A stretch of DNA of 64,000 nucleotides from an uncultured Actinomycetes bacterium (GCA_963850695.1 CAWKMJ010000001.1:931578-995577); one strand, 5' to 3'; counted from the stretch's first letter, positions 18,685 to 64,000 are shown. Notes: generated by a model not told the origin, from the letters alone. Numbers and translations are program-made.

Positions 18685-18704
18685 GGCCGCCCAGCTGGGC
18701 GGCC
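18685..18704 (-). terminator. GC hairpin terminator after tRNA-Glu(CTC)
   Basis: GGCCGCCC-agct-GGGCGGCC is a perfect 8-bp stem. It is followed on the minus strand by TTTCT. Confidence 0.55.
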
Positions 18705-18716
18705 TCGGTGTCATGT

Positions 18717-18792
18717 TGGTGCCCCCACGGGAATTCGAATCCCGGTCTCCGCCTTGAGAGGGCGGTGTCCTTGGCCACTAGACGATGGGGGC
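18717..18792 (-). tRNA. tRNA-Glu (anticodon CTC), CCA encoded
   Basis: Acceptor GCCCCCA/TGGGGGC, GTCTAGTGGCCAAGGAC D region, anticodon stem CCGCC/GGCGG with loop CTCTCAA, T arm with TTCGAAT, then A-CCA. Confidence 0.9.
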
Positions 18793-18943
18793 GGCCGCGA
18801 TAGTGTCTAACAATCCAGTGTACAAATCAAGCGTCAGACGCGCGGCACGACCGTGACTAGAGAGCGGCGTGCCAGGGGCGACAGCCGTCGGGCGCCCTCC
18901 GCCCGTTCCTCGCAAACGGCTACATGATGCCGGAGGCCGCACG

Positions 18944-21717: not shown

Positions 21718-21793
21718 TGGTGCCCCCAGCGGGATTCGAACCCGCGCTACCACCTTGAAAGGGTGGCGACCTGGGCCACTAGTCGATGGGGGC
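21718..21793 (-). tRNA. tRNA-Glu (anticodon TTC), CCA encoded
   Basis: Acceptor GCCCCCA/TGGGGGC, anticodon stem CCACC/GGTGG with loop CTTTCAA, T loop TTCGAAT, then A-CCA. Confidence 0.9.
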
Positions 21794-21803
21794 GTGTCAA
21801 CGT

Positions 21804-21879
21804 TGGTGGGCCGTGTAGGAATCGAACCTACGACCTTGGGATTAAAAGTCCCCTGCTCTGCCAACTGAGCTAACGGCCC
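21804..21879 (-). tRNA. tRNA-Lys (anticodon TTT), CCA encoded
   Basis: GGGCCGTTAGCTCAGTTGGCAGAGC.., anticodon loop CTTTTAA, T arm GTAGG-TTCGATT-CCTAC, acceptor ..ACGGCCC-A-CCA. Confidence 0.9.
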
Positions 21880-48851: not shown

Positions 48852-48864
48852 GTGATGGCGTCTC

Positions 48865-49226
48865 CTAGGAGTTCTCGGACGGGGCGACTGGCTGTCGCGA
48901 GCGAGCTCATCCTCGTCCGGCTTGGGATAGACGACCTTGAGCAGATAGGAGATCTGGAGGATCACCGCGACCGGCGTGAGCCGCAAGCACGATCCAGCGG
49001 TACTGGCTCGGCAGCACGTCCGCGGGATGATCGTCGCGACCATGGCCACGATGAAGCAGCATCTGCGGACCGGCCCAGAGCACCTTGGACGGTCGCTCGC
49101 GAGCGCTGTCGGCGCGAACGGAGCCGCCAGGCGTCGATCGAGACGAACGACCGCCATGAGCAGCGATGACGACACCGACGGATCGTTGATGAACCAGATG
49201 CCCGGCCCGGTGAGCTCGGCCTCCAC
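48865..49226 (-). pseudogene. small membrane protein, hypothetical, between purQ and purL (frame uncertain)
   Basis: ORF 48738..49226 (MEAELTGPGIWFINDPSVSSSLLMAVV..CCFIVAMVATIIP..LTPVAVILQISYLLKVVY). An alternate-frame TAG at 48865-67 lies inside taGGAG, upstream of the purL ATG. Weak. Confidence 0.3.
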
Positions 49227-49925
49227 TAGCCGGCCACCTCCGCGAGATACTGCGCGACCGAGGTGAAGAACGCCTGCCCGTCCGTGCCGCCCGTGACCGG
49301 ATCGACCGCGCGCTCGGGATGAGGCATGAGACCGAAGACGTTGCCGCGCTCGTTGCAGATGCCCGCGATGTCGTCGAAGGCTCCGTTGGGCGCCGAGCCG
49401 TCCTCGGCACGCTGTCCCGTGCAGTCGCTGTAGCGCAGGACGACCTGCCCGTTGGCGTTGAGCCGGGCGAGCGTCTCCTCGTCACAGATGAAGTTGCCCT
49501 CGTTGTGGTTGATGGGGATGCGCACCACCGTGTCCCGGCCGAGGTCGAGCCACTGGCAGACGTTCTCCTCGACGCGCAGCGTCACCTCTCGGCAGATGAA
49601 CTTGAGGGTGTTGTTGCGCAGCAGCGCGCCGGGCAGCAGATGCGCCTCGGCAAGGATCTGGAACCCGTTGCAGACGCCCATGACCGGACCGCCCGCCTCG
49701 GCGAAGCGGATGACCTCGTTCATGACCGGCGAGAAGCGCGCGACCGCGCCGCAGCGGATGTAGTCGCCGTAGCTGAAGCCGCCCGGCAGCACGAGCGCGT
49801 CGAAGCCGGCGAGGTCCGTGTCGCCGTGCCAGACGTACTCGGCCTCGAAGCCGAGGATGCCGGGCTGCATGGATGACGTCTTGCTCGCAGTTCGAGCCGG
49901 GGAAGATGACGACGCCGAAGCGCAT
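49226..49925 (-). pseudogene. purQ: phosphoribosylformylglycinamidine synthase glutaminase subunit PurQ; one frame break near 49870
   Basis: [17 protein letters not shown] (ORF 49482..49925, ATG after GGAGGAGG), then ORF 49226..49993 ([33 protein letters not shown]). Confidence 0.9.
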
Positions 49926-49928
49926 GCG

Positions 49929-50166
49929 CTACCTCCTCCACCGTCTCGATGCGGTAGTCCTCGATGACGGGGTTGGCCAGCAGCTTGTCGCACATCTCCT
50001 GCGACGGTCGCCGCGATCGACGTCGCCGGCGATGCTGGATGTACTTGCCGATGCGTACGCTCTCGACGCCCTCGTAGCCGAGGTTCTGCAGAGCGTTCTC
50101 GGCGGTCGCTCCGGGCGGGTCGAAGATGCCCTGCTTGTACGTCACGTAGATCTCGTAGCGCGCCAC
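49929..50166 (-). pseudogene. purS: phosphoribosylformylglycinamidine synthase subunit PurS (3' frame disturbed)
   Basis: [60 protein letters not shown]. The in-frame ORF runs on into purQ, and a TAG at 49929-31 is one nt out of frame. Confidence 0.7.
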
Positions 50167-50191
50167 GCCGCCGTCCCCTCTCGGTCAGTCC

Positions 50192-50650
50192 CTACGACTT
50201 CTTCTTCGCGTCCTTCTTCGAGGATGCCTCAGATGAGGCTTCTTCTTGCCGCCACCCTTGTCGAGCTCGGCCGCATACTCCTTGCGCATGCGCCGGATCT
50301 TGGTGACGTCGATGTAGACCGCCGCGAAGATGCACGTGTAAGCGGCCACGAGAGACAACGTGTTGATGGGCCCCGAGAGGTTGTTCTGCCCCCACCAGGC
50401 GCCGAGCGAGAAGACGAGCGCCGCGACGAGCAGGCCCAGCCAGATCCTGCGCCAGCATCTTGAACTCGGGCGTATCCGGCACGGGGAGCGGCTGGAAGAA
50501 CCGGCTCTTCTTCTTCTCTGGCGTCGACTCGAGGTATGATCCCGTGTCGCCCGACGCCCTCTTGGGCTTGGCCGAGGCCGCGCTCTTGCGCGTCTTCCCG
50601 ATCTCCTTGCCCTTCTGATAGCGCGGGTTCTGTGCGCTGCGTCGTGTCAT
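50192..50650 (-). pseudogene. small basic membrane protein, hypothetical, between purC and purS; one frame break
   Basis: ATG at 50650 ([31 protein letters not shown]..) in the frame of ORF 50192..51850. It joins [48 protein letters not shown].. in the 50229.. frame. Confidence 0.5.
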
Positions 50651-50655
50651 GTGGT

Positions 50656-51553
50656 TCAGTCGCCTTCCGGTTGGAACGTGCGTCCCGTGATCGTCTCGTA
50701 GGCCTCGATGTAGCGCTTGCTGGTGCCTTCGATGACGTCGGCGGGCAGCTCGGGCGGCGGCGGGTGTCTTGTCCCAACCGCTGCTCGCTGAGCCAGTCGC
50801 GCACGTACTGCTTGTCGAAGCTGGGCTGCCCGCGTCCGGGCTCGTACTCGTCCATGGGCCAGAACCGGCTCGAGTCCGGCGTGAGGACCTCGTCGATGAG
50901 CGTGACCTGGCCGTCGACGACGCCGAACTCGAACTTGGTGTCCGCGATGATGATGCCGCGTGCTGGCGGCATGCTCGCGCGCCTGCGAGTACAGCGCGAT
51001 CGAGGCGTTCCTGAGCGCCTCGGCAGATGTCTCGCCGATGATGTCGACCATCTGCTCGAAGCTGATGTTCTCGTCGTGATCGCCGATCTCGGCCTTGGTC
51101 GAGGGCGTGAAGATCGGCTCCTCGAGCTTGGCTGATTCGAGCAGGCCGTCGGGAAGCTCGATGCCGCAGATGGTGCCATCGGCCTGGTACTCCTTCCAGC
51201 CCGAACCGGCGACGTAGCCCCGCACGATGCACTCGACCGGGAAGACCTCGGCCTTCTTGACGATCATCGAGCGTCCGCGCAGGTAGTCCGCGTGCGGCGC
51301 GAACTCCTCGGGCAGTGTCGCGACGTCGCTCGAGATGAAGTGGTTGGGCACGACATCGCCGAGCAGATCGAACCAGAACAGCGAGAGCTTGGTGAGCACC
51401 TCGCCCTTGTACGGGAATCGGCTGGTCAAGCACTACGTCGAAGGCGCTGATGCGATCCGATGCGACGAGAAGCAGCCTGTCTCCGAGGTCGTAGATGTCG
51501 CGCACTTTGCCCTGGGTATCCGGGCTCAGGCCCTGCGGCTCGACCACGGGCAT
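50656..51553 (-). pseudogene. purC: phosphoribosylaminoimidazole-succinocarboxamide synthase; about 4 frame breaks
   Basis: ATG at 51553 ([39 protein letters not shown]), then YKGEVLT..ECIVRGY.. (50656..51429), then [34 protein letters not shown] (50229..51179). Confidence 0.9.
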
Positions 51554-51751
51554 ACGGCTCCTTCCGGGGTGTTGGCGAAAGGACCGGCGGCGCCCGTGGG
51601 ATAGGGTGGCTGTGAGAAGCTCCGCGTCGCCGTCATTGTAGGTCAAAGAGTGTTTCGGTTGTAGGTCGGGAATGAGGCCGTGTGACGGGCCTGTGGCCGT
51701 GCGCGTGAGACTGCGTGTGGCCGGTGGCAGGGGCGGGCAACCCGTCCCACA

Positions 51752-51760
51752 TGGTAAAAT
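51752..51760 (+). promoter_or_regulatory. candidate extended -10 promoter (TGgTAAAAT) for panD
   Basis: caTGgTAAAATggg lies about 65 nt upstream of the panD ATG (51825), which is preceded by GAAGGAG. Confidence 0.35.
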
Positions 51761-51824
51761 GGGTGTGCACCTGTAGGATCCGACCTGCGGACGACGGCGG
51801 GCGGGTACCGAGAAGGAGTAGCAC

Positions 51825-52212
51825 ATGCGCCGGACCATGCTCGGTGGCAAGATTCATCGCGCCACCGTCACCCAGGCAGAACTCGAGTACGAGGGCAGCA
51901 TCACTGTTGACCTCGATCTTCTCAACGCTGCCGATATCCTCCCCAACCAGCACGTCCACGTGTGGGACGTGACCAATGGGGCACGCTTCGAGACCTACAC
52001 GCTCGCAGGCGAGCGCGGCTCCGGTGTCGTGTGCGTCAACGGGGCAGCAGCCCACATGGTCGATGTCGGCGACCTCGTGATCATCGCGAGCTTCGTCGAA
52101 CTCGAGGATGCCGAGGCGCAGCGCTGGCAGCCCCACGCGGTCTTCGTCGATGGTGACAACCGCGTCAGAGGAGCTGCGCGCCGAGGAGCTGCCCGAGGCA
52201 CTCCGGGGCTAG
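51825..52212 (+). pseudogene. panD: aspartate 1-decarboxylase; one frame break near 52165
   Basis: [29 protein letters not shown] (pyruvoyl G-S site) ..[22 protein letters not shown]... A 1-nt correction gives ..[20 protein letters not shown] with a TAG at 52210-12. Confidence 0.85.
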
Positions 52213-52337
52213 CGGCCGACGCCATCTCCGTGTGCCTGGCTCAGGTCCGCGAGCGCTCCCTCTTCTGTGAGTTCGCGCACTACGCTGAGCCAGGCCGCTG
52301 CGCTATCATCTTCTGGGGCGACAAGGGAGGAACACGT

Positions 52338-52869
52338 ATGCCCGAAGAGGCCGTATGTCCCACGTGCAGATGCACCGTGGTCGTCACGCAGCAGGGAACG
52401 TGTCCGATGGGACACCCGATCGATGCTGCCGCCGTGAAAGCAGCGTCGCAACAGCCCGCACCTGCACCTGCGCCCGCACCCGAGGCGGCTGCACCGGCAG
52501 CAGCAGCAGCGCGGCAGCCGGCAGCAGGAGCAGCCGCAGCTCCTCAGCAGGCTCCGGCACCGTCAGCGTTCGAGGCCCAGACGATAGCGGATCCGTTCGC
52601 AGCTCCGGGAGCACAGCAGCCCCAGGACCCCGCAGTCCCGACGGGCGACACATCGACGCTACCGCCCGCCGGGCGAATCCGACTTCTTGTCGGGCCCTGC
52701 CCCGAGCCCACAGCAGCGCAGAAGCCCAAGCGCAAGACGAGTCCAGTGTTCGTCATCTTGCTGGTGCTCATCCTGATCCTGGTCGTGGTTGCCGCTGTGA
52801 TCGTCGTGTTCTTCCCCGAGATGATCGGGCTCGCGATGGCCGTCCCTGCTGCTCGCGGCCGTCACCTAG
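52338..52869 (+). CDS. Cys-rich (zinc-ribbon-like) / Pro-Ala-rich / single-TM protein, hypothetical (3' end uncertain)
   Basis: ATG at 52338 follows [33 protein letters not shown], a long [11 protein letters not shown] linker, and TM helix [23 protein letters not shown]. The listed ORF tail overlaps the convergent gene and is probably spurious. Confidence 0.45.
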
Positions 52870-52880
52870 GCGCACCGGGG

Positions 52881-53103
52881 CTAGAAGATCTTCCAGCCGT
52901 TGTAGAGGATCAGCGCGAGCAGTCCGTGCGCCCGCGGTCAGGGCGACGATCGCGTAGGCGGTCCACCTGTGGACCTTCATGTGGGTGCGGCCCTTGAACT
53001 TGATCACGCGCAACCCGACAAGCAGCTCGAACACGAGCATGGCGAACACGACGATGCCCCCGTACATGATGGGCGACCAGCCCAGCTGGATTCCGAAGAT
53101 CAT
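52881..53103 (-). pseudogene. small 2-TM membrane protein, hypothetical; one frame break
   Basis: [59 protein letters not shown], then after a shift [15 protein letters not shown]. The span is 223 nt, not a multiple of 3. Confidence 0.5.
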
Positions 53104-53215
53104 CGTCGCACCTCTCGCCTGTGTCTCATGCGCCTCTGAGTGCCTCGAGCTGCAGTAGCGCACTCTTCAGGCCCCGCCGCTCTGTTCTCATCTATGGTAC
53201 CCGCCTCTGACAACG

Positions 53216-53244
53216 AGAAGGCCCGCGATCTCCGCGGACCTTCT
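53216..53244 (-). terminator. long GC hairpin downstream of the two-component operon
   Basis: AGAAGGCCCGCG-atctc-CGCGGACCTTCT is a 12-bp stem with one mismatch. It has a poor T-tract, so the terminator role is tentative. Confidence 0.4.
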
Positions 53245-53308
53245 CTTCACGTGTGCCCCTGATGAGCGGAGCTTGAGCTGGTCTTCTCACTTGAAGACAT
53301 CACTCTGT

Positions 53309-53794
53309 CTAGAACGTACCCCAGACGGGGCATCTCGCACCGTTCCGTGCATCCTCGGGCGCGATCTGACCCTCCTCGAGTTCGAGTTCCTCAGGGTCTA
53401 TCGGGTTGCCCTCTTCGTCGAAGAGGCGCGGGCCCTCATCGCCCCAGAACGGGTGCCCGCCCTTGAAACCACCTCGGGGACCAGGCATCATGCCTCGGCG
53501 ACCCTTCATGTACTCGTCGTCCCACTCGCCTTCGTCGCATTCGCCCATCCCGGGACCTCGCATGCCCGGGCCGCGTTCACTCGGGTGACCGAACATGGGA
53601 CCGTGTCCCTCAGACTCCTCGGCCATGCCCATCGCCGGGTGAGGCCCACCGTGGACGAACCCGGGCCCACCTGCCACTGCTCGGGCCGCCATGGTCGTCA
53701 TGGCGATCCCCACCGTCGCGGTCATCGCGCCCAGAATGAACGCTCCCACGAGTCCGAAGGCGATCAGGAGCGCGGTCTTGCTCTGCTTGTCCAT
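53309..53794 (-). CDS. membrane-anchored Gly/Pro/His/Met-rich protein, hypothetical (possible metal-binding or envelope-stress protein)
   Basis: 161 aa, intact. TM helix TALLIAFGLVGAFILGAMTATVGIAM, then HGGPHPAMGMAEESEGHGPMFGHPSERGPGMRGPGMGECDEGEWDDE... It is the last gene of the RR-HK operon. Confidence 0.55.
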   Translation of the reverse strand: MDKQSKTALLIAFGLVGAFILGAMTATVGIAMTTMAARAVAGGPGFVHGGPHPAMGMAEESEGHGPMFGHPSERGPGMRGPGMGECDEGEWDDEYMKGRRGMMPGPRGGFKGGHPFWGDEGPRLFDEEGNPIDPEELELEEGQIAPEDARNGARCPVWGTF

Positions 53795-53899
53795 GGGTCA
53801 TGAGTCCCTCTCATTGCGTTTGTGTCATGACGACAGCATGGCAGCCGCAGCATGAAGTGGCCGTGGCACGCGGGTGAAGGTTGTGTGAGAGACGCCGAG

Positions 53900-55293
53900 C
53901 TAGGGCGTGTGCAGCGGCAGATGGATGGCGAACACGCTGCCACCACCCTCGCGGCGCTTGACCGAGACGTAGCCGTGATGGCGCTCGACGATCTCCTTGA
54001 CGATCGAGAGCCCGATGCCGAGCCCGCCACCGGTCGCCCGGTCGCGGGCGTCATCGGCGCGCCAGAAGCGAGCGAAGACGCTGTCGATGTCCTCGGCCGA
54101 GATCCCGATCCCGGTGTCTGCGACCTCGATCACGGCCTGCTCGCTCTCTCTCGAGAGGCGCACGGTCACGTGACCTCCCTCGGGGGTGTAGCGAGCCGCG
54201 TTCGACAGCAGATTGCCGACAGCCTGCGTGAGCCGGTCTGCGGTCACCAGTGACCCAGACGCCGTCGGCAAGGTCGACCGAAAGCGTGAGTCCGGTCGCC
54301 TCCATGAGCGCGTTGTGCGAGTCCACCGCTGTGGCCACCGGAACAGCAAGATCCACGCGCTCCGACTCGAACTCGATGTTGCCGCGCTCAAGCCGCGTGA
54401 GCTCGAGGATCCCGTGAGCAAGACGCGAGAGGCGCATCGTCTCGTCCCGCACGATCCCCAGATGCTCCTCGTCGGCGGGCATGACGCCGTCCTGCATCGC
54501 CTCGACTGTGGCCTGGATGGCCTGCAGCGGGGTGCGCAGCTCGTGGGCCACATCCGCGGTAAGGCGCCGCTCGAGTTCCCGATCGGCCTCGATCGCATCG
54601 GCCATCTCATCGAACGTCCTGCCAAGGACCCCGATCGCGTCATCGCCCTCGAGACCCGTGCGCACATGGCGGTCACCGGAGCGCATCGCCGATGCGGTCG
54701 CTGTGATCTGGTCGATGGGCTTGACCAGCGATCTCGCGAAGATCGTGCCGGCAGCCGAGGCGAGCAGTACCGCGACGATCGCGGCCACGAGGAGGCCGGC
54801 GAAGCTCGACTTCTGGAAGCGCACGTCGTTGTCGGAGAGCAGACTGCCCGGGGAGAGCGACCACACGCGTACGATGCCGACGACCTCATCGCCAACGACA
54901 ACAGGGGATGTGACGACCGGTCCCTCGGGCTGCCGGTATCCGCCCGCCGGCTCGCCCATATCTCCGCGCATGAAGCGGCCGTGGAACGATGTCGTCGTAG
55001 ATGATGCCCCCGTCGGCGGTCTGAACCTGCAGACCGAGACCGCTCATCATCCCCAAACGGGGCAGCTGGGAGAACGAGTCCGTCGTCCAGCAGTTGCCGC
55101 ATTCGATGAACGAAGACGCGAGCAGATGGGAAGCCCCATCGGCGGTCTCCTGCATGCCCTCGCGGACATACGTGTCGAACTGGCGGTTCCAGACGTTGGC
55201 GAGGATGACGGCGGCAAGCAGCGCGGTGATCGCGGCGACAGCCGCGAAAGCGAGAGCAAGTCTGCGGCTCAGACTGCCGCGCGCCGGGGCCAT
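53900..55293 (-). pseudogene. sensor histidine kinase (2 TM, HAMP, HisKA, HATPase_c); two frame breaks
   Basis: Fragments 54886..55293, 54051..54971 and 53900..55102. H-box ADVAHELRTPL, N-box NLLSNAARYTP, G-boxes DTGIGI and GGGLGIGLSIV. Confidence 0.85.
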
Positions 55294-55296
55294 GGA

Positions 55297-56003
55297 CTAC
55301 TCCTCGTCCGCCGGCGCCTCGAAGCGGTAGCCTACGCCGTGCACGGTGTAGATGTACTGCGGGTCCTTGGGATCATCGCCGAGCTTGGCGCGAAGGTTCT
55401 TCACGTGGCTGTCGATGGTGCGCTCATAGCCGACGAAGTCATAGCCGAGCACCTTCTCGACCAGCTCCATGCGGGAGTACACGCGTCCGGGATAGCGTGC
55501 AAGTGTGGCCAGCAGCTTGAACTCGCTCGCGGTCAGATCGACATCGTCGCCGTCGACGCGCACCTTGTGCCCGGCCGAGTCGATCTCGAGATCGCCGTAC
55601 TGCAGGCTGATCGCGCTGGGGCTCCTCGCTCACGTTGCGCGCGCCGCAGCAGCGCGCGGACTCGAGCAACAAGTTCGCGCGGGGAGAACGGCTTGACGAG
55701 ATAGTCGTCGGCGCCAAGCTCCAGACCTGCGACGCGGTCCTCGAGCTCTCCCTTGGCAGTGAGCATGATGATCGGCACGTCAGAGCTCTCACGGATCGTC
55801 TGGCAGACCTCCTCACCGGAGGCCTTGGGAAGCATGAGGTCGAGCACGACCACGTCGAACTGGTGCTTGTCGAACTCGTCAATGGCGGCAATGCCATCGG
55901 CAGCGGCCGTGACCCAGTAGCCCTCTTTCTCGAGGTAGGCGCAGACCGCCTCCCGAATGGCCTTCTCGTCCTCTACGACGAGGATTCGGCGCGTCGCCGT
56001 CAT
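55297..56003 (-). pseudogene. OmpR/PhoB-family response regulator; one frame break near 55620
   Basis: Receiver domain ILVVEDE..VVVLDLMLP..IIMLTAKG..DDYLVKPF (55533..56003). Winged helix LTASEFKLLATLARYPGRVYSR..TIDSHVKNLRAKL..IYTVHGVGYRF (55297..55563). Confidence 0.85.
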
Positions 56004-56193
56004 CGTGCCCTCCTAGCAGTGGCCCGAGCCTCTCGGCCGAGCGTTGTCTCGTGGACTTCTGGGGAGGTCAGGACCGGCTGTCGTGACGACCCGCAGTGGC
56101 ACTGTCACAGAGCAAAGTGTAGCCCTCACCGGCTCGTTCCCTCACTAATCCACGGAATCTCCATGGGCGCTGAGCGCGGCCTCTGAGCCGCGT

Positions 56194-57030
56194 TCAGCCG
56201 ACTCTGAGCGCGTCTGCGAGGGTGCTCGGGAAGACCCTGCTCGCGCATCGCGGCGAGCACGGCTTCGATGTCGTACTCCACGCGATGCTCGATCACGCCG
56301 AGCCAGAGTGTCCGTCGTGCCGACAGCGGCAGTCGCAGCATCATCGCGGGACGGCCGCAGCGGACCTCGTCCTCGCTGCCCATCACGAGCTCGACCCAGC
56401 CCGCGCGCGCATCGCCGTCCTTGGGCTTGCCGACCGAACCGGAGGACACGAAGTGGATGGTCCCGGCATCGGCGGCACCCTGCACGCCGCGGCTCTCATC
56501 GGCGACCGCGGGGAACGAGCGATGGTACGGGATGTGGATGTGCCCGTGACAGACGACGTCGGCGCGAGCTTCCTCGGCAAGTCGTGCGAGCTGCTTCTCG
56601 CTGCGATCGAGCAGCAGGTACTCGTTGATCTTGCGAGGGCTGCCGTGGACAAGCAGGATGCGCGCATCGCCCTCGGCAGCTGGATCTGGGGTTCGACGCG
56701 AGGCAGCCATGTCGGCAGAGTCCTCGATCGAGCTCGAGCTCGGTGAAGTCGTAGGAGCGCTCGCCGTCGTCGCGCGCCTGGTCGGTGGCGTAGTAGCAGC
56801 CGCAGCTCGCCGGCGCGAGGAGCCACGCCCTCGTCGTAGTTGCCCTGGATGGTGAGGTCGCCCGAGTCGCGAACGCGCTCGACGACGCCGACGGGGTCGG
56901 GCCCGTAGCCGATCAGGTCGCCGAGGCAGTAGCGCTCGGCGATGCCGCGCTGCGTCGATATCTGCGTAGACGGCCTCGAGCGCGCGGGAACGTTGCCGTG
57001 GATGTCCGAGTAGAGCGCGACGCGGCGCAC
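56194..57030 (-). pseudogene. metallophosphoesterase-family protein (YfcE/Metallophos_2-like); several frame breaks
   Basis: GTG at 57030. Motifs DIHGN, GDLIGYGPDP, GNYD, LVHGSP, CHGHIH. Fragments 56383..57030 and 56126..56710. Corrected C-terminus ..GLPSTLADALRVG* with TGA at 56194-96. Confidence 0.75.
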
Positions 57031-57031
57031 G

Positions 57032-57476
57032 CTACTTGCCCCATCCCCACCCGAGCGTCATCACGACACCGACGATCGGCGAGGATCATGCCGAGCAGGC
57101 CGATCCCGCCGAGCAGGCCGCCTGCGACGACGCACACCGCCGCGACTGCGGCCATGACCGGACCGCGATGACCGCCGGATCCACGACGAACGGCCTCGCC
57201 AACGAGCGTCCCCCAGAAGAAGGAGATGATGAAGAACGTCCAGCCAAAGAGGCCGAGGAGCCATCCGCCGAGTACGCCGGCGAGAAGACCGAGGGCGGCG
57301 CCTCCGATGAACTGCTTGGGCTTGATGTAGATGTACTGGCTGCGCTTGGGCCTGCCATGCTCGGGACACTTGTACCCAACCGGCGTGTCGATCCACTCCT
57401 TGGGACAGATGGGCTTTCCGCAGGTGGTACAGGTGACGCCGGTCTCGACGTCTGGATGGTACGAGCACTGCGCCAT
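57032..57476 (-). pseudogene. B-box-like zinc-finger / 3-4 TM membrane protein, hypothetical; one frame break near 57090
   Basis: MAQCSYHPDVETGVTCTTCGKPICPKEWIDTPVGYKCPEHG followed by Gly-rich TM helices. Corrected C-terminus ..ILSPIVGVVMTLGWGWGK* with TAG at 57032-34. Confidence 0.55.
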
Positions 57477-57573
57477 GTGAGCCCTACCTCGCGGTCCTTC
57501 TCGGCTTCATGTCCTGATCGGCCGGTCCCGGCCGATGGCTGCGTCCTGCAGGGTGCATTGGCACCCGCACGAC

Positions 57574-58487
57574 CTACGCGAATGATAGCCGAGATGGAAC
57601 CGCGTCCCACAGGGTATCGGCCACAGGCGAGCGCGCGGCGTCGCGCAGACCCGGAGCGCTGGGCCCCTCGGCAGACATGGTCTCGAGCGTGGAGGCGAGG
57701 GACTCGTCGAACGGCACCTCTGCGACGAGATCCACTCCGCGCTCGGCACAGAGCGCCCTAACGCCCTCGCGACCCTCAGTCGAGAGATCGGCCTTGTTGA
57801 GCACGACGACGGATGCGATGGAGAACGAGTCGGCGAGATCGAGCAGGCGCGCCAGATCGTGTGCGCCGGAGACGGTAGGCTCTGTGACGGCTACGAGAAG
57901 GTCGGTATCGGCCAGCGCGGCGATCGTGGGACACCCGACGCCGGGCGGCCCGTCGATCAGGACGAGTCCGCCCCGGACTCGGCTGGCCGAGATCGAGGCC
58001 ATCTTGCGTACCTCGGTCACGAGCTTGCCCGAGAGGTCCTCGCCCGGGCGCGAGAGCGCCCCACGCGATGCTCCCGCCATCCCACGCGCCGAGACAGACG
58101 CTGCCAGCTCGCTCCCGACTCATCTCGATCGCGCCAGACGGGCAGCTCAGCGCGCACCGGCCGCATCCCTCGCATGCCCACGGGTCGACCTCGTAGCGCC
58201 GGAGCGCTCGAGGCGGTCTCGCACAGTGAGATCGCGTCGAACCTGCAAGCCTGCTCGCAGAGCCCACACTGCGTACACGCCGCAGGGTCGATACTCGCCG
58301 TCGGACCCCCTTGGAAGGCCACCCGCGTGGACTCGTGCGCATCGAGGGCGAGCGGCAGATTCGAGGCCTCGACATCGGCGTCTGCAAGCACCGTCTTCAC
58401 CGTGCTCGCGGCTCGAAGCGCCAGCAGCGCCGAGAGTGTGGTCTTGCCGGCCCCGCCTTTGCCTGAGGCGATCGCGATCGTCCTCAT
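57574..58487 (-). pseudogene. MinD/ParA-type P-loop ATPase with inserted 2x[4Fe-4S] ferredoxin domain (ORP-complex-like), copy 2; frame breaks
   Basis: The ATG at 58487 overlaps the upstream stop (ATGA). Walker A IASGKGGAGKTT. Ferredoxin motifs CTQCGLCEQACRFDAI and CEGCGRCALSCPSGAI. C-terminal half in ORF 57574..58080 (VLIDGPPGVGCP..VTEPTVSG.HDL..VVVLNKAD). Confidence 0.8.
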
Positions 58488-59407
58488 AGTGATTCTCCCG
58501 GCCATCTCGCGCGTTCCCACCCGGACGGGTGGGGTCGATGCGATAGCGCGCATCGCTGTGGCCACGTAGCCGAGCCACTCGGCCACCTGTGAGTGAGTCT
58601 GTGCAACGAGTTCGCCGCGGGCATAGGTCTCGGCGATCGAACGCTCGAAGGGGAGATGACCCACGACCGGCACGTCCCACTCATCGCAGAAGCGCTCGAT
58701 GTCGGTGGTGCCGGTCCCAGACCTGTTGACGAGCACGCCCATGGGAAGGCCCAGCGACAGGGTGAGCTCGGCGGCAAGCCGCAGGTCGTGCAGGCCGAAG
58801 ACGGTCGGCTCGGTGACGAGCAGCACTGCGTCAGCACCCCTGATTGACGCGACGGTCGAGCACGAGACCCCCGGCGGTGCATCGACGATGGTCAGTGCCG
58901 CTGCGCTCTCGCGTGCCTTGGAACGAGTGGCCCTGATGACCTCGGGTGCCTTGGTCTGTCCGATGTCCATGACGCCGGTGATCAGCGTCAGCTCCGGATA
59001 CGATGTCGTATCCGACGTGCGGACCTCACCTACACGGACGTCCGTTCTCGCCGATCGCCGAGGCGGGACACGCGAACGAGCACGCGCCACAGCCATGGCA
59101 GAGCTCATCGAATACGACCGCGCGTTCCCCAAGTACCCGTATCGCACCGAACGCGCACGTACGCGAGCAGATACCGCATGCAGTGCACGCGTCTCGGATC
59201 GACCACTGCAAGCGGCACCGAGACCTCGCTGACGTCAGTCGCGTGACCCGCCAAGAAGAGATGCGCGTTGGGTGCCTCCACATCGCAGTCGGCGAGAACG
59301 ACGGGTCCGGACGCGGCCTCGATGGCAGCTACGTTGGTCGCCACGAGCGTCTTGCCCGTACCGCCCTTTCCCGAGGCGATGGCCAGTGTGAAGGAGTCAG
59401 GGTGCAC
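58484..59407 (-). pseudogene. MinD/ParA-type P-loop ATPase with inserted 2x[4Fe-4S] ferredoxin domain (ORP-complex-like), copy 1; frame breaks
   Basis: GTG at 59407. Walker A IASGKGGTGKTL (59105..59407). Ferredoxin motifs CTACGICSRTCAFGAI and CHGCGACSFACPASAI (59026..59283). ..IVDAPPGVSC..VTEPTVFGLHDL..GVLVNRSG (58017..59147). Confidence 0.8.
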
Positions 59408-59416
59408 CGACGTGAC

Positions 59417-59796
59417 CTAGTGCCCGCCGCACACGTTGCGAGCGTCCATCTGCGGCAGCTGCCCGGAGGCGACGAGTCCGATCACATCGCCCACACCGGG
59501 CGTCACGTTGTCGAAGTACACCACGATCCCCACGTCGTTGAATCCGGCGAGCGGTCGCGCGCCCATGCCCGCCACGACGAGGGCTGTGACGTCGTGCCCC
59601 GCGAGCAGCTGCACCGGCTGCAAGACATCCGCCTTCCACATGCGGCGGGTTGTCGATCACCTCAACGGACATGATCTCGCCATCGGCGACATCCACGATC
59701 GTGAAGCAGTCGCACCTGCCAAAATGGCCCGACCTCTCGCTCTCGACGCCACCCTCGCCATTGGAGGGCACCGCCAGCCGTATGCGTCTCGCTCAT
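59417..59796 (-). pseudogene. NifX/NifB-like (MTH1175-type, dinitrogenase FeMo-cofactor-binding fold) protein, copy 2; frame breaks
   Basis: ..RLAVPSNGEGGVESERSGHFGRCDCFTIVDV.. (59397..59771) joins ..LQPVQLLAGHDVTALVVAGMGARPLAGFNDVGIVVY.. (59417..59641). The ATG at 59796 requires one further 1-nt correction. Confidence 0.7.
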
Positions 59797-59876
59797 CTGT
59801 GTCTCCGTTCTCTCCCTGTTCGACATCGTGCGGATGCTGCCCGGATCGCGCGAGCGGCCGGCCAGAGCATGGGCCG

Positions 59877-60241
59877 CTACTCCATGCCCTTGTGGGCTTC
59901 TGATTCGGCAAGGGGGCTCGAGCATTCCATCCTCAAAGGCCTGCACGGCCTCCCGCACCGTCATCCCTGCGCCCCGCGTATCCCTCGATGCCGACCATCG
60001 AGAGCGCGCGGTACGCCTTGGGCCCCAGGTGCCCGGTGATGACAGCCGCAGCCCCGCTGTTGGCGACAAGCTCGGCCGCACCGATCCCGGCACCCTGAAG
60101 CGCGTTGCTGTTCTCGGCGTTGTCGATACACTGCGCCGTCATCGTGCCGCAATCCACGATGAGGAGGTGGTCCGCCCGGCCGAACCTCTCATCGACCGGG
60201 TCGTCCACTGCGGTGCCGAGTGTGGACACCGCGACCTTCAT
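59877..60241 (-). pseudogene. NifX/NifB-like (MTH1175-type) protein, copy 1; frame breaks near the 3' end
   Basis: ATG at 60241 follows GAGGTGG. MKVAVSTLGTAVDDPVDERFGRADHLLIVD..GAGIGAAELVANSGAAAVITGHLGPKAYRAL... Corrected tail ..GMTVREAVQAFEDGMLEPLAESEAHKGME* with TAG at 59877-79. Confidence 0.7.
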
Positions 60242-60439
60242 CGCAACCACCTCGCGCGGGTGCGCAGCCGCCGGCCCAGACCGCGGCCGCCTCCCCGGAG
60301 GAAGCGAGGCTGACCTTGCTCGGTCAAGCGGGCTTCGACCGCTCCATCGTCTGCGGTGGACGACGCATCGGCCACGCCCTCTCCCCGTCATCGCGCCCTC
60401 GGCCCGTGGGACCTCGTCCATCCATTCCAGGCATATCGC

Positions 60440-60988
60440 TCACTCCTTCCCGTTCTCTGATGCTTGGCTCTGGCTCTTGACGCCCTTCCGGGCGCTAGCC
60501 AAGGCGTCCGCAAGCTCCTCGGCGAGCAGGCCCGACAAGCGGACGCGCTCCTCGAGATGAGCGATCCAGTCCTCGGCGAGCTCGTAGCCGGCTGCGGTGA
60601 GCTGGTACTCCCTCTTCTGCGGACCGGAATCGCCGTCGACCCACGTCGAGGTCACGAACCCCTCTTCTTCCATACGCCTGAGCGTGCGGTAGAGACCGCC
60701 CGCATCGACGCTCACGACATCCTCGGTCATCTCGCTGATCGACTTGCGGAGGTCGTAGCCGTGCCCGCCTTCGCGAAGAAGCGCGGCGACGATCGCCGGT
60801 TCCACGAGTGCCCCGCGCCCAGCGCTCCCGCCGTGCCGGCGACTGTCGCAGCAGCGACGGCCGCCTCCGGGGCCTGCACGGCCACCTCTCTGGGCGTGCC
60901 TTTGAGTGCGCGCGGCCTTCTTGTCTTCGTGACGCCGGGCTCGAGCCTCATGGCGAGCCGCACGGCGCTGTCCTGTGACCTCAGTCAT
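60440..60988 (-). CDS. PadR-family transcriptional regulator with Arg/Gly/Cys/His-rich N-terminal extension
   Basis: 182 aa, intact. PadR core LVEPAIVAALLREGGHGYDLRKSI..GGLYRTLRRMEEEGFVTSTW.....REYQLTAAG. About 60 N-terminal residues are rich in R, G and H, with a CC pair. Confidence 0.75.
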   Translation of the reverse strand: MTEVTGQRRAARHEARARRHEDKKAARTQRHAQRGGRAGPGGGRRCCDSRRHGGSAGRGALVEPAIVAALLREGGHGYDLRKSISEMTEDVVSVDAGGLYRTLRRMEEEGFVTSTWVDGDSGPQKREYQLTAAGYELAEDWIAHLEERVRLSGLLAEELADALASARKGVKSQSQASENGKE

Positions 60989-61207
60989 GGTGACTGCTCC
61001 TAACAGGTAGATGCTAGTACGCGCTAGATGTTAGTCGCATCTAGTGAAGTCGTCAAGAGGAGCTCCTCTCTGGAACGCATCCGAACTCGCCGAACCCCGC
61101 CGAAACGGGTGATGTGCGCAGCTCAGTTGGGGTACGAACATGGAGCGGAGGGCGCGCGGCGCAGGCTCACTCGATCGACAGACCGCAACAGGACGAGAGG
61201 TCACACC

Positions 61208-62569
61208 ATGGCGCTGGAGGATGCGGGACCCAAGACTCGCTCGAAGGTGGGCAAGGCCGAGCGCGACAAGGTGGAGCCGTCTGAGCTTGGCGCGTGGGAG
61301 CCCGCGTCCGAATCGCCCGGATCCGGTGAAGCTCCTGGTCGACCAGGGCAAAGGTCGCGTCCAGAAGCTGCTGCCCATCAGGTATGGACGCATGTCGGAC
61401 ACGCCGTTCCGCTTCTACAGAGGTGCTGCGGCGATCATGGCGTGGGACCTGGGCAACGCCCCGTCCACAACGCTCAAGGCCCAGTGCTGCGGGGATGCCC
61501 ATATCAGCAACTTCGGCATCTTCGCCACACCCGAGCGCCGTCTCATCTTCGACGTCAACGACTTCGACGAGACGAGTCTTGCTCCGTTCGAGTGGGACGT
61601 GAAGCGTCTCGCCGCGAGCATCATCATCTGTGGACGAGGCAACGGCTTCTCCGACGACGACAATCGTCGCGCCACAACGACCGCGATCAAGGAGTACCGC
61701 GAGTCGATGGCGAGCTTCGCGGACGAGGGCACGCTCGACCTGTGGTACGAGTCGCTGGACGTCCACGAGCTCATGGACGAGCTGAACAAGAAGGCGAAGA
61801 AGCAGGCTCAGAAGGGCATCAAGAAGGCTGGTCGAGCGAACTAGTCTGGGCTCGCTGGACAAGCTCACGCGTGGTCGTTGACGGCAAGCGCATCATCAAG
61901 GAACGCCCGCACCTCATCGAGCGAGTGGATGCGGACGAAGAGAGACTCGTCGAGATGCAGCGTGCCTTCGGGGAGTACATCGCATCGCTGCCCGCAGAAC
62001 GAAAGAAGCTCGCCGAGAGGTTCTCCTACGTGGACGCGGCGTTCAAGGTCGTTGGCGTGGGCAGTGTGGGGACGCGCGCGTGGATCGTCTACCTCGAAGG
62101 CCAGGGTCCTGGCGAGGATCCGCTCTTCCTCCAGTTCAAGGAGGCCGACCGCTCGGTCCTCGAGGCGCACGCCGGCAAGAGTCGTTTCAAGCACTCGGGC
62201 CATCGAGTGGTGGACGGCCAGCGCATGATGCAGGCATCGAGCGACATCTTCCTCGGATGGACGACCGGCAGGGACGGCACCAACTACTACGGCAGGCAGC
62301 TCCGCGACTTCAAGGGCTCGTCTGAGCCGGACCGACTGGGGAGTCAAGGAGCTCACCGACTACTCCAAGGCCTGTGGATGGACGCTGGCCCGGTCCCACG
62401 CGCGCAGCCAGGACCCGGCGGTGCTGGCCGGCTACATGGGCAAGAAGAGTCACTTCGAGAAGGCGATGGTCAAGTTCGCCGAGACCTATGCGGACCAGAA
62501 CGAGCAGGACTACGAACGCCTCCTCGACGCCATCGACTCAGGGAAGATCGAGGCCGAGAAGGGGATCTA
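61208..62569 (+). pseudogene. DUF2252-family protein; about 3 frame breaks
   Basis: ATG at 61208. ..RPDPVKLLVDQGKGRVQKLLPIRYGRMSDTPFRFYRGAAAIMAWDL..CGDAHISNFGIFATPERRLIFDVNDFDET..FEWDVKRLAAS (61140..61844). Middle part in 61028..62932. Corrected tail ..ACGWTLARSHARS..YADQNEQDYERLLDAIDSGKIEAEKGI* with TAG at 62567-69. Confidence 0.8.
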
Positions 62570-62597
62570 GGTCCCCGGGACGGAGCTTCTCAGGCAC

Positions 62598-63191
62598 GTG
62601 GATCTGGAAACCACACCACAGGAAGCGTCCCTGGCCCTGACCACGGAGTACGACTGGGAGATCGAGCACCAGCTGGCGGTGACGCGCATCGCGCTGGAGC
62701 TCTACGACCAGCTCGACGAGCTCCATGGACTCGGCACGAGAGAGCGCGTCCTGCTCGAGTGCGCCGGGCTCATGCACGATATCGGCTGGGTGGGCGGCCA
62801 GAAGAAGCACCATCGTCGCTCGGCCACGATGATCATGGAGCGTGGAGTGCCGGGACTCGACGAGCAAGAACTCCTCATCGTCGCCGCGATAGCCCGATAC
62901 CACCGCAAGGCCATGCCCGATCCCGAGCATGAGATCTACGGTGACCTCGACGCCGGCGAGCAGGAAGTCGTGCGCTGGTGCTCGAGCATCCTGCGCGTGG
63001 CCGACGGTCTCGACCGAGCCCATGACAGCGCGGTCTCCGCAATCCGAGCTCAGATCGGCGAGGGGACGATCGAGCTCGCAGTCTCGTGCACCCGCAACTG
63101 CGATATCGACATCGCGGGAGGGCAGCGCAAGGTCGGGGCACTCGAGGCCGAGAGCGGCCGCGCTGTCCGTCTGGTCAGGGCACGGGATTAG
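62598..63191 (+). CDS. HD-domain protein of the Ppx/GppA C-terminal type (no ASKHA N-terminal domains)
   Basis: 197 aa, intact. LLECAGLMHDIGW..KKHHRRSATMI..LLIVAAIARYHRK..LRVADGLDRAH matches the HD module that ends exopolyphosphatase/GppA proteins. Confidence 0.7.
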   Translation: MDLETTPQEASLALTTEYDWEIEHQLAVTRIALELYDQLDELHGLGTRERVLLECAGLMHDIGWVGGQKKHHRRSATMIMERGVPGLDEQELLIVAAIARYHRKAMPDPEHEIYGDLDAGEQEVVRWCSSILRVADGLDRAHDSAVSAIRAQIGEGTIELAVSCTRNCDIDIAGGQRKVGALEAESGRAVRLVRARD

Positions 63192-63210
63192 AGATGCGAG
63201 GTGACACAGC

Positions 63211-64000
63211 ATGGTGAGACAGGCCAAGTTCCTGATTCCAGGCGTAGATTCGACCACGCCCCTCGGCGAGGCCGCAACGAAGATCCTGGTCTCCAAGTCC
63301 CGCAGGATGTTCGATCTCGAGGCGGCCGCCGCCGGAGGCAGCGACGTCGAGGCGGTCCACGACATGCGGGTCGCGTCGCGCAGGACACGAGAGGCGCTCG
63401 ACGCGCTGTCCCCCGCGTTCAAGGACAGGACCGCCGAGGAGCTGACCCTGATCGCCAAGACCGTCACCCGGTCTCTCGGTGCGGTGCGGGATGCCGATGT
63501 CTTCCTCGATGAGTTCACGCGATTGGCTGCGAGCGCCGAGGACGCGGCGGAGCGGGTCACGCTCGCCTACCTCATCGGTCGGCGGGAGGCAGAGCGTGCG
63601 GCCGCTCTTCGCAGGATGAGGAGGCGCCTCGGCCGACTCGACCTCAAACAGTCGCGCAAGCGCTTCCGCAAGGTCGCCGCAGCGACCCGCAAGGGCTCGA
63701 GGAAGCAGCCGCTCGTCATGCTCGCGCGCGAGGTGCTGAACGACCGCATGGACGTCGTCTACTCGTACCTGCCGGCCGCCCTCGAAGAGAGCAACGCGCC
63801 CGACCAGCACGCGATGCGCATCGCCTTCAAGCATCTCCGCTACGCGGTCGAGACCTTCGCCCCGTGCTTCGACGGCGGGTTCTCGCGAATCCACAACACC
63901 CTCATCGCCTTCCAGAACGTCCTCGGCGAGATCCACGACCTGGATGTCTTCGCTGAGGCCGTGACCGAAGCCCTCGACCAGGACGAGGCTATCGCCGCCG
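63211..64000 (+). CDS. CHAD-domain protein (3' end off the window)
   Basis: Own translation from ATG 63211 (frame 1, open to the window end; not in the ORF track because no stop is reached). ..VHDMRVASRRTREALD..LGAVRDADVF..QHAMRIAFKHLRYAVE..LGEIHDLDVF are the repeated CHAD helix motifs. Confidence 0.8.
   Translation, partial: MVRQAKFLIPGVDSTTPLGEAATKILVSKSRRMFDLEAAAAGGSDVEAVHDMRVASRRTREALDALSPAFKDRTAEELTLIAKTVTRSLGAVRDADVFLDEFTRLAASAEDAAERVTLAYLIGRREAERAAALRRMRRRLGRLDLKQSRKRFRKVAAATRKGSRKQPLVMLAREVLNDRMDVVYSYLPAALEESNAPDQHAMRIAFKHLRYAVETFAPCFDGGFSRIHNTLIAFQNVLGEIHDLDVFAEAVTEALDQDEAIAA

Follow-up and report, generated by a model that had tools for sequence, protein, structure and literature searches.

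A six-gene orange-protein operon with a cysteine-bearing PadR-type regulator in an uncultured Actinomycetes bacterium

What might an orange-protein (ORP) gene cluster do in a high-GC actinobacterium, and what controls it? These questions are raised by a minus-strand gene array in a 64,000-nucleotide stretch of DNA (hereafter the window) from an uncultured Actinomycetes bacterium (GCA_963850695.1, CAWKMJ010000001.1:931578-995577). The array runs from 60988, the padR ATG, to 57574, the end of the ATPase 2 stop codon, and an earlier note on this DNA had read it as a five-gene cluster under a PadR-type regulator that matches the cluster DVU2103-DVU2109 of Desulfovibrio vulgaris. We count six genes, encoding a PadR-type regulator with a Cys-Cys pair (PadR-CC), a small DUF5320 protein, ORP, a second NifX-like protein (NIF2) and two MinD-like ATPases with ferredoxin inserts (ATPase 1, of the ATPa type, and ATPase 2, of the ATPb type). 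We consider it rather probable that padR-CC, DUF5320, ORP, NIF2, ATPa and ATPb form a single autoregulated operon that represents the core of the conserved anaerobe ORP module, a redox-active metal-sulfur machine repressed by PadR-CC; the operon probably handles metal-sulfur cofactors.

Gene order and reading frames of the operon

A Pfam scan of hand-stitched frame fragments identified PadR (PF03551, 1e-16), two NifX-like (Nitro_FeMo-Co) domains (PF02579, 1e-20 and 1e-17), the N-terminus of a DUF5320 protein (PF17253) and, in both ATPases, a CbiA/ParA P-loop with two Fer4 motifs nested within the P-loop match (coordinates in Table 1). The genes constitute a tight operon, in which two of the gaps measure 5 nt (padR-DUF5320) and 9 nt, two pairs share an ATGA overlap (DUF5320-ORP; ATPase 1-ATPase 2 at 58487-58484, the latter also in the related locus L001 described below), and a sequence scan gave a single promoter-like site and no terminator-like site inside the operon; one further gap is about 80 nt long. 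Rfam and tRNA scans returned no match near the operon. Judged from sequence comparison, the gene arrangement is well beyond chance; relatives repeat the identical gene order. The earlier note had set the boundaries exactly at the minus-strand start and stop codons, and its NifX-like and ATPase domain content as well as the ATGA overlap of the ATPases agree with our results. The genes are co-directional, as it stated, but it had missed the DUF5320 gene, and although it read the domains correctly, it did not mention that only padR is uninterrupted.

Five of the six operon genes are broken in the given sequence: in a three-frame reading, the frame changes two or three times in each, always by +1. 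The reference for these breaks, L001 (ENA ERZ25039603 contig_13313, 95 kb), was found via P0001, a 303-aa homologue of the stitched ATPase 2 (86% identity, and 88% after frame correction). It is colinear with window positions 47551-63998 at 88.5% DNA identity, and all six genes are intact in it (182, 64, 120, 125, 306 and 303 aa, the 64-aa open reading frame (ORF) being uncalled). Relative to L001, the operon ORFs of the window contain 12 extra single bases, zero of them in padR: near 60400 and 60361 in DUF5320, 59976 and 59918 in ORP, 59784 and 59623 in NIF2, 59198, 59044 and 58494 in ATPase 1, and 58209, 58048 and 57984 in ATPase 2, where a compensating deletion lies near 57965. All four bases occur among the insertions, and 3 of the 12 stand beside an identical base, so they fall mostly outside homopolymers. 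Their density in the six operon ORFs is about 1 per 280 coding bases, and it is similar, again compared with L001, in the neighbouring DUF2252, response-regulator, panD and zinc-finger genes. Once the insertions are deleted, zero internal stops remain, and the ratio of non-synonymous to synonymous substitution rates (dN/dS) against L001 is 0.03-0.2 at a dS of 0.26-0.45 for all six genes (padR 0.07; DUF5320 0.14). The operon coding sequences are thus under purifying selection.

Because of this strong purifying selection, the one-directional error type and the spread into neighbouring genes, the frame breaks are most likely consensus errors of an assembly of the unpolished long-read type. Were the frameshifts real, the operon would be a decaying pseudogene array, non-functional in its host. 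Twelve single-base insertions interrupting five of six genes in about 3.4 kb would fit such decay, as would their position mostly off homopolymers, which is unlike typical homopolymer errors. However, correction restores frames without internal stops and with the low dN/dS values given above, panD, the response-regulator gene and DUF2252 share the insertion density, the exclusively +1 shifts point to a systematic insertion-error profile, and L001 is itself locally broken, as expected of unpolished long-read assemblies. Real pseudogenisation is unlikely on these sequence grounds, and an operon without function in its host seems to us highly improbable.

The fragmentation extends beyond the operon. 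Across window positions 47551-63998, neighbouring genes are frame-split, several of them by single-base insertions relative to L001, and ORF-based annotation is badly fragmented. L001 is affected too (positions 11457-12285, 13505-14575 and 17082-19240): its metallophosphoesterase and histidine-kinase genes are broken, and the purC/purQ region shows many 1-2-bp gaps in the alignment of window and L001; both assemblies carry indel errors.

The conserved core: two NifX-like proteins and paired ATPases

Comparison with the Desulfovibrio system was made by proxy, using the loci of close relatives of the D. gigas ORP (L002 and L003/L004) and the published description of the Orp proteins; a homologue search seeded with the D. 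gigas ORP gave no D. vulgaris entry among the 120 matches listed, which were metagenomic or Desulfobacterota proteins. After frame correction, the first NifX-like protein (NifX1) has its best PDB match in the ORP of D. gigas (Megalodesulfovibrio; 2WFB, E=1e-24), followed by MTH1175 (1e-15). Its identity to the D. gigas ORP, over about 107-109 residues, and to the ORP of L002 is 46%, versus 27-32% to NIF2-type proteins; the D. gigas protein is of similar length and likewise has no conserved Cys. NifX1 keeps the residues conserved across 47 ORP-type proteins (DxRFGR, N41, GAG and TGxxGPxA), among which there is no conserved Cys. By these sequence measures NifX1 is an orange-protein orthologue. 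The ORP-type protein of Desulfovibrio holds a Mo-Cu-sulfide cluster, [S2MoS2CuS2MoS2], non-covalently (PMC6345978), and NifX1 is a candidate for the same binding.

The earlier note had treated both NifX/MTH1175-like proteins in the same light; its link to ORP holds for NifX1, as the 2WFB match and the 46% identity show, and fails for the second protein, NIF2 (NifX2). The best PDB matches of NIF2 are PH0822, MTH1175 and TM1290, with ORP merely at E=0.1, and it is 47% identical to the product of the second NifX-like gene of L002 and L003. It contains HFGRCDC, GGC and VCGGH motifs, with an invariant HFG and cysteines at positions 28, 57 and 122, and matches positions 264-346 of the NCBIfam MrpORP model, the Di-Nase segment (E=8e-11). 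The Di-Nase domain of Orp9, marked by the motif CxHFGHCE, is a [3Fe-4S]-binding one (PMC6345978). NIF2 was consequently rejected as a second ORP and placed in a separate subfamily that resembles this Cys/His-bearing domain. Both proteins belong to the NifX/PH0822/MTH1175/IssA fold family, whose NifX-family domains bind anionic Fe-S species and act as cofactor carriers; in IssA, thioferrate is stabilised by cationic Gly/Arg tails (PMC5524996). In contrast to IssA, neither NifX1 nor NIF2 has such a tail and the Gly/Arg-rich segment is a separate polypeptide, DUF5320; in contrast to nitrogenase-linked NifX, the window proteins are not accompanied by nitrogenase genes.

In its cationic Gly/Arg composition, DUF5320 resembles the tail with which IssA binds thioferrate. 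With 38.4 bits, the corrected protein passes the Pfam cut-off of 27; the match extends over positions 1-56 of the 99-position profile, lacks the C-terminal coiled-coil and includes the N-terminal signature MPxxDGTGPxGxGPxTGRGxGxC. The Gly/Arg-rich protein is encoded directly past the padR stop and into the overlap with the ORP gene, at a position where the gene is intact in L001, L006 and L008, and about 20 surveyed loci, spread over many phyla, share its N-terminal signature. The literature searched offered nothing relevant on DUF5320 or DUF134. A DUF5320 variant with an MPxGDGTGPxGQGPxTGRG start and a CxCPxCG...CPxCG zinc-ribbon end instead of the coiled-coil adjoins ORP modules in several phyla (L027 4314, L032 4698, L035 5035, L046 5610, L060 4565 and L061 2569).

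ATPase 1 and ATPase 2 are 38% identical to each other. ATPase 1 is closer to ATPa of L002 and L003 (38-39%, 1e-68) than to their ATPb (32-34%), and ATPase 2 is closer to their ATPb (40%, 1e-63) than to ATPa (35%); by sequence, the two are one-to-one orthologues of the ATPase pairs beside close D. gigas ORP relatives. Measured over 71 ATPa and 79 ATPb sequences, the deviant Walker A SGKGGxGKT (SGKGGTGKT in ATPase 1), the DxD, eight ferredoxin cysteines, the Walker B Asp and one extra Cys are 100% conserved, and both window ATPases have two CxxCxxCxxxC(P) motifs. The extra invariant Cys follows the Walker B Asp by seven residues (DxPPGxxCP) and corresponds to Cys182 in ATPase 1 and Cys185 in ATPase 2 (near 58864 and 57933, minus strand). 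The D-C-D cysteine of ATPa, Cys41 in ATPase 1 (near 59287), is 92% conserved. The Asp-Cys spacing of DxPPGxxCP equals that of Asp125 and Cys132 in NifH, and by analogy the extra cysteines may, in the manner of NifH, bind a cluster or metal between the subunits.

With the SIMIBI class (MinD/ParA/Mrp-NBP35/NifH), both ATPases share the SGKGGxGKT signature-lysine P-loop, the DxD switch I and Walker B; they differ by a ferredoxin domain of about 65 residues with 2x[4Fe-4S] within the P-loop fold. No solved structure of a P-loop ATPase with a ferredoxin insert emerged from sequence and fold searches of the PDB, and no window module protein passed an NCBIfam family model. AlphaFold2 modelling, done for the orthologue P0001 (88% identical) in place of ATPase 2 itself, gave a predicted local distance difference test (pLDDT) score of 93.6, with MinD, FlhG, FleN, McdA and Soj as the nearest folds, then HypB, ApbC and Cfd1; the core fits MinD, FlhG, FleN, HypB, ApbC and Cfd1 at template modelling (TM) scores of 0.5-0.66.

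How constant this set of genes is was assessed by running an ATPb alignment against a single genome from each GTDB species, which yielded 80 loci from Actinomycetota, Chloroflexota, Bacteroidota, Desulfobacterota, Clostridia, methanogens, Bathyarchaeia, Thorarchaeota and others; hidden Markov models (HMMs) built from the window, L001, L002 and L003 scored module and regulator families only. ATPa lies directly upstream of ATPb in 71/80 loci, an ORP-type gene occurs within 3.5 kb in 60/80, a NIF2-type gene within the same distance in 49/80, and both in 42/80. Within 5 kb, the survey found DUF134 in 16/80 loci, Zn_ribbon_8 in 12/80, PadR in 10/80 and a sigma54 activator in 4/80, and a ferredoxin-less Mrp-like ATPase was scored in 18/80. 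The gene order of the window is identical in the four closest loci, L005-L008 (51-59% identity; Actinobacteria UBA2184 and metagenome-assembled genomes (MAGs) of Coriobacteriia), and the order PadR-(DUF5320)-ORP-NIF2-ATPa-ATPb recurs in L001 and about 25 metagenomic loci. It differs from that of the D. gigas relatives, where the genes of two proteins that share 68-75% identity with the D. gigas ORP stand in arrays of the form ORP-ATPa-ATPb-NIF2-Zn_ribbon_8; ahead of one of them lie a DUF134 gene and an ORF rich in Gly and Arg. The four core genes correspond one-to-one to the modules beside D. gigas-type orange proteins, and they travel together in bacteria and archaea alike. Synteny in relatives, the lack of which the earlier note had named as a reason to abandon its reading, was thus observed for the NifX-like and ATPase genes. 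One candidate for a canonical orp locus, L069 (Maridesulfovibrio), was rejected, the ORFs that border its ATPa-ATPb pair being a Gly-rich one and one of the CGGC type.

The fold ranking of the ATPase core, led by MinD, FlhG, FleN, McdA and Soj, suits a module that serves as a MinD-like positioning or cell-division device, in which the ATPases would sit at poles or septum and the clusters would merely tune them to redox. Work on Desulfovibrio points the same way, with a putative septum-positioning role of the ORP complex, MrpORP located at the poles and C-terminal amphipathic helices of the MinD type in Orp3/Orp4 (PMC3897727; PMC6345978). However, the window ATPases score only 55-61 bits with the NCBIfam model minD_arch (cut-off 201.75) and 31-48 bits with minD_bact (cut-off 212.9), no minC or minE gene adjoins the operon in the window or the relatives' gene lists, and no cationic amphipathic helix is obvious by eye at the ATPase C-termini (...RVGTREMAGRSL; ...LWDAVPSRLSFA). 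A MinD identity was rejected on these three grounds. The constant partners of the ATPases are, moreover, NifX-like cofactor carriers and not division genes, and the module is found in diverse archaea and bacteria with differing division machineries. Gene context supports a role in cell division less well than one in cofactor handling, and we rate the former as distinctly unlikely.

The ATPases and NifX-like proteins could also be dedicated maturation factors of the CooC/HypB/Mrp-like kind for one metalloenzyme, such as a Mo/W enzyme, carbon monoxide dehydrogenase (CODH) or hydrogenase. HypB, ApbC and Cfd1 belong to the same SIMIBI class and come close behind MinD in the fold search, NifX-family proteins are cofactor carriers (PMC5524996), and an Mrp-like ATPase accompanies the module in 18 of the 80 loci surveyed. 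Nevertheless, the operon is flanked by DUF2252, HD/Ppx-GppA, CHAD, zinc-finger, metallophosphoesterase and two-component genes and by no metalloenzyme; no enzyme family recurs beside the module in the loci whose gene or ORF lists were inspected, and neither these lists nor the window flanks include a CODH or hydrogenase. CooC is missing from the top 50 structural matches and the top PDB sequence matches, and the regulon of OrpR in D. vulgaris consists of the orp operons only (PMC8359166). With no CooC match and no CODH or hydrogenase neighbour, identity as CooC-type maturation ATPases was rejected; a grouping with CooC or a neighbouring enzyme, the second reservation of the earlier note, appeared in none of the sequence, NCBIfam and fold searches. 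Likewise rejected were carriers of the Mrp/NBP35/ApbC type: the window ATPases have the deviant Walker A of this type (GKGGhGK[ST]), but a single invariant Cys follows Walker B in place of the CXXC that in Mrp bridges a [4Fe-4S] cluster, and like MinD, which they also differ from in the lack of MinC/MinE, these families are matched below all NCBIfam cut-offs. We regard service to one particular metalloenzyme as unlikely and retain the interpretation of the operon as a cofactor-handling module in its own right.

PadR-CC, its promoter and operator

PadR-CC meets its Pfam family model with 60.8 bits (cut-off 27). Its AlphaFold2 model (pLDDT 87) predicts a charged helix (residues 3-34), a Gly-rich linker with C46-C47 (35-58), a winged helix-turn-helix (wHTH; 59-130) and a C-terminal helix (132-179); the linker is modelled at low confidence and predicted to be disordered. 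Residues 3-34 (60982-60887) are rich in Arg, His, Lys, Ala and Glu and form one long, confident helix in the model, which occurs only in the window, L001 and few close relatives. The core corresponds to a small PadR of the LmrR/Rv3488 type, and the fold matches, of about 100-110 aa, all lack an N-terminal extension. PadR-CC thus shares the wHTH and the single C-terminal dimerisation helix with LmrR, Rv3488, TA0346 and the Eggerthella lenta protein 4EJO, to which it adds an N-terminal extension of about 58 residues with an invariant R-P-C-C-R-R-x-G-G-G-x-G-A-L-V-E-P linker; the subfamily also stands out by its tight linkage to ORP modules.

An exact-sequence lookup of the window PadR gave no match. 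The subfamily is a narrow one: among 1.84 billion representatives, 3167 matched at E<=1e-3, 210 at 1e-10 and 9 at 1e-30, and a 90%-cluster database held 153 PadR proteins at E<=1e-15, from MAGs of Coriobacteriia, Thermoleophilia or Actinomycetota, all named merely "PadR family transcriptional regulator". The Cys pair is present in 104 of 106 subfamily members with complete N-termini, at a set distance from the wHTH and in most of them 27-30 residues ahead of an HGYD motif; the consensus reads G-G-R-P-C-C-R-R-A-G-G-G-G-R-G-A-L-V-E-P, and many members carry one to three more cysteines upstream. A metagenome scan with the PadR alignment produced 80 loci, and in those with at least 700 bp of downstream sequence (DUF5320)-ORP-NIF2-ATPa-ATPb directly follows 24 of 25 CC-PadRs versus 8 of 30 non-CC PadRs, two of these eight being N-terminally truncated.

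A 62-bp stretch upstream of padR is 100% identical between the window and L001, whereas the rest of the intergenic spacer has diverged. It includes the sigma70-like promoter and a perfect palindrome, CTAGATG-N7-CATCTAG, which overlaps the promoter spacer and the -10 element. The motif TAKATG-N7-CATMTA occurs once in the 64-kb window (0.05 expected), and if up to two mismatches are allowed, most related loci have it 30-70 bp ahead of padR, where the chance rate is estimated at about 0.015 per 400 nt; paired sites 17 or 33 bp apart are frequent there. The operator of PadR in Bacillus subtilis is ATGT-N8-ACAT, and the small PadR repressors likewise use a palindromic ATG...CAT operator at their own promoter. 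We propose that PadR-CC binds the palindrome over the -35/-10 promoter and represses the operon, and that its R-P-C-C-R-R linker, with four thiolates per dimer, would sense a metal or metal-sulfur ligand, or redox state, and then release the DNA. PadR-CC would thereby fill the role that the [4Fe-4S] sigma54 activator OrpR has in D. vulgaris; a PadR in the place of OrpR, with an unusual N-terminal tail, is also what the earlier note had described, and the CC subfamily, the model and the fold comparison bear it out.

We go one step further only tentatively, and with more doubt than conviction, in suggesting that PadR-CC is the first PadR-family regulator to sense through a metal or metal-sulfur ligand at vicinal Cys pairs. 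Placed beside the DNA-binding domain in a linker that is flexible, cationic and rich in Gly and Arg, the two Cys pairs of each dimer might ligate an Fe-S cluster, or a thiomolybdate/Cu species that the ORP module handles, and so make transcription of the module depend on redox state or on cofactor load. PadR-CC would then have arisen convergently as the sigma70-type equivalent of OrpR with its [4Fe-4S] sensor, and the Gly/Arg/Cys peptide DUF5320 would be a possible small partner presenting the same ligand to it. The literature searched contained nothing relevant on Fe-S-binding PadR proteins. As far as this literature shows, the PadR-CC subfamily with its conserved operator, in the minimal DUF5320 composition without Orp9 or the presumed equivalent of Orp5, is undescribed.

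Arg/Gly-rich, Cys-bearing segments recur at ORP modules of unrelated lineages (L003 6942-7752; L044 8362-8700; the PadR-CC tails). They comprise an N-terminal KCR and a C-terminal CRGRGRGCRRR in DUF134, TGRGxGxC in DUF5320, RPCCRR in PadR and the Gly/Arg-repeat ORF L003_112, and may represent a shared ligand-binding peptide or a compositional coincidence.

Comparison with Desulfovibrio, proposed mechanism and significance

The cluster of D. vulgaris Hildenborough (DVU2103-DVU2109) consists of Orp3, Orp4, Orp5, Orp7, Orp8, Orp9 and OrpR. Orp3 and Orp4 are paralogous MinD-like proteins with two [4Fe-4S] motifs each; they form a complex with Orp5, Orp8 and Orp9 and receive Fe-S clusters from MrpORP (PMC6345978). 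OrpR is a [4Fe-4S] redox sensor under which the orp cluster is on in reducing conditions (PMC8359166). The window shares with this cluster an Orp8 orthologue, an Orp3/Orp4-like ATPase pair, an Orp9-like Di-Nase domain, a neighbouring dedicated regulator and an anaerobic lineage context. In contrast to the two divergent operons of D. vulgaris, it has a single co-directional one, with a sigma70-like promoter and PadR instead of sigma54, integration host factor and the PAS-[4Fe-4S] activator OrpR, and with a free-standing Di-Nase-like protein where Orp9 is fused to an Mrp/NBP35 P-loop domain; its host is a high-GC, Coriobacteriia-like actinobacterium, and a DUF5320 gene is present. No Orp9/MrpORP was detected in the 64-kb window, where the NCBIfam MrpORP model gave 21-45 bits (cut-off 450) and no third deviant-Walker-A gene was found, and by HMM scan it has no Zn_ribbon_8-type gene, which follows the module in L002 and L003 and which we presume, on the basis of reference 23 in PMC6345978, to be the equivalent of the small [2Fe-2S] protein Orp5. 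Nor does the window encode an enhancer-binding protein, the only match to such a model being a response-regulator receiver domain, an Mrp-type gene, DUF134, a sigma54 activator or a second copy of any module gene. The match to DVU2103-DVU2109 put forward earlier is partial: by the proxy comparison it holds for ORP and the ATPase pair, and it does not extend to Orp9, Zn_ribbon_8, the sigma54 activator or the divergent layout.

Based on these features, we propose the following hypothetical mechanism, in which (i) ATPa and ATPb form an ATP-dependent heterodimer with two [4Fe-4S] clusters each and an extra invariant Cys at switch II; (ii) this heterodimer would act with two NifX-like carriers of anionic metal-sulfur species, ORP as a Cys-free carrier and NIF2 as a Cys/His-bearing one resembling the [3Fe-4S] Di-Nase domain; (iii) the cationic, Gly/Arg-rich DUF5320 peptide would participate; and (iv) the four ferredoxin-type clusters, possibly with an interface Cys site, would supply electrons or drive metal-sulfur transfer. 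The module would then be a redox-active machine in which a metal-sulfur cofactor is held, assembled or handed on, following a logic like that of NifH with NifX/NafY, or of Mrp/NBP35.

Several points weigh against this interpretation. We know of no biochemical function established for any ORP module, and the heterodimer, the bridging cysteine, a part for DUF5320 in the machine and the sensing of a ligand through the Cys pair are all inferences. In sequence and fold, MinD, FlhG and FleN rank marginally above HypB, ApbC and Cfd1 as neighbours of the ATPase core, and the Desulfovibrio literature proposes that the ORP complex is linked with cell division (PMC6345978; PMC3897727). MrpORP, which donates Fe-S clusters in Desulfovibrio, is missing here, as is the presumed counterpart of its small [2Fe-2S] protein, and some Chloroflexota PadRs that adjoin ORP modules lack the cysteines; the CC pair is therefore not required for PadR control in general. 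Finally, that the frameshifts are artefacts is not provable from the assembled sequence alone.

Table 1. Features of the ORP operon and of the genes around it (positions counted from the first letter of the window)
Feature	Position	Strand	Basis or remark
Sigma70-like operon promoter, TTGACG-17 nt-TAACAT	61028..61056	-	consensus scan
Putative PadR operator, perfect palindrome	61024..61044		sole TAKATG-N7-CATMTA match in the window
Weaker second operator copy, half-conserved, 3 mismatches	61008..61026		17 bp downstream of the first copy
padR-CC, 182 aa, only intact operon ORF	60440..60988	-	Pfam PF03551; AlphaFold2
DUF5320 gene, 64 aa corrected (MPGMDGRGPTGQGAMTGRGRGRC...)	60238..60434	-	PF17253, 38.4 bits
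ORP-type NifX-like gene (NifX1), 120 aa corrected	59877..60241	-	PDB 2WFB, E=1e-24
NIF2-type NifX-like gene (NifX2), 125 aa corrected	59417..59796	-	PF02579, 1e-17
ATPase 1 (ATPa type), 306 aa corrected	58484..59407	-	Pfam CbiA/ParA + Fer4; orthology to L002/L003 ATPa
ATPase 2 (ATPb type), 303 aa corrected	57574..58487	-	Pfam; 88% identity to P0001
Zinc-finger membrane protein, 147 aa	57032-57476	-	directly after the ORP operon
Metallophosphoesterase	~57030-56126	-	after the zinc-finger gene, split over frames
Response regulator	55297-56003		neighbouring gene, split over frames
Histidine kinase	53900-55293		neighbouring gene, split over frames
DUF2252 gene	61208-62570	+	divergent from padR, split over frames
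HD/Ppx-GppA_III-type protein, intact	62598-63191	+	divergent from padR

The zinc-finger membrane protein and the metallophosphoesterase follow the cluster as the earlier note had observed (Table 1), but the former does not appear to belong to the module, its gene being found behind the operon in no other loci than the nearest relatives, L001, L085 and L086. It has an N-terminal CxxC...CxxC zinc-finger-like segment (weak B-box match, E=0.008) and a Gly-rich membrane segment. On the other side of padR, the plus-strand region 61208-64000 encodes DUF2252 and HD/Ppx-GppA_III proteins and, by synteny with L001, CHAD and Ppx-GppA; these genes resemble polyphosphate metabolism and have no evident link to the operon. 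A functional link to the flanking polyphosphate-type genes, the zinc-finger gene or the metallophosphoesterase was rejected because these neighbours are conserved in the closest relatives only. Elsewhere in the window, four tRNA genes (Val-TAC, Glu-CTC, Glu-TTC and Lys-TTT; 18477-18792 and 21718-21879, minus strand) all score full-length despite the indel-rich assembly.

In summary, the core of this operon is an ordinary ORP module of the known anaerobe-specific system, its regulator is the new element, and nothing established is overturned. The window also exemplifies how an insertion-rich assembly can conceal an intact operon from ORF callers. ORP modules are among the most widely conserved gene clusters of strict anaerobes without an established function, and to our knowledge work on them has so far been confined to Desulfovibrio. 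The locus and its relatives define a minimal four-gene core of ORP, NIF2, ATPa and ATPb, which persists without MrpORP and which different lineages have placed under different regulators, namely DUF134, a sigma54 activator or PadR-CC. If PadR-CC does sense a metal or metal-sulfur ligand, it would provide a simple genetic handle on the cargo of the ORP system; its conserved operator and invariant Cys-Cys pair offer a testable entry to the signal, and hence to the cargo, of this system.

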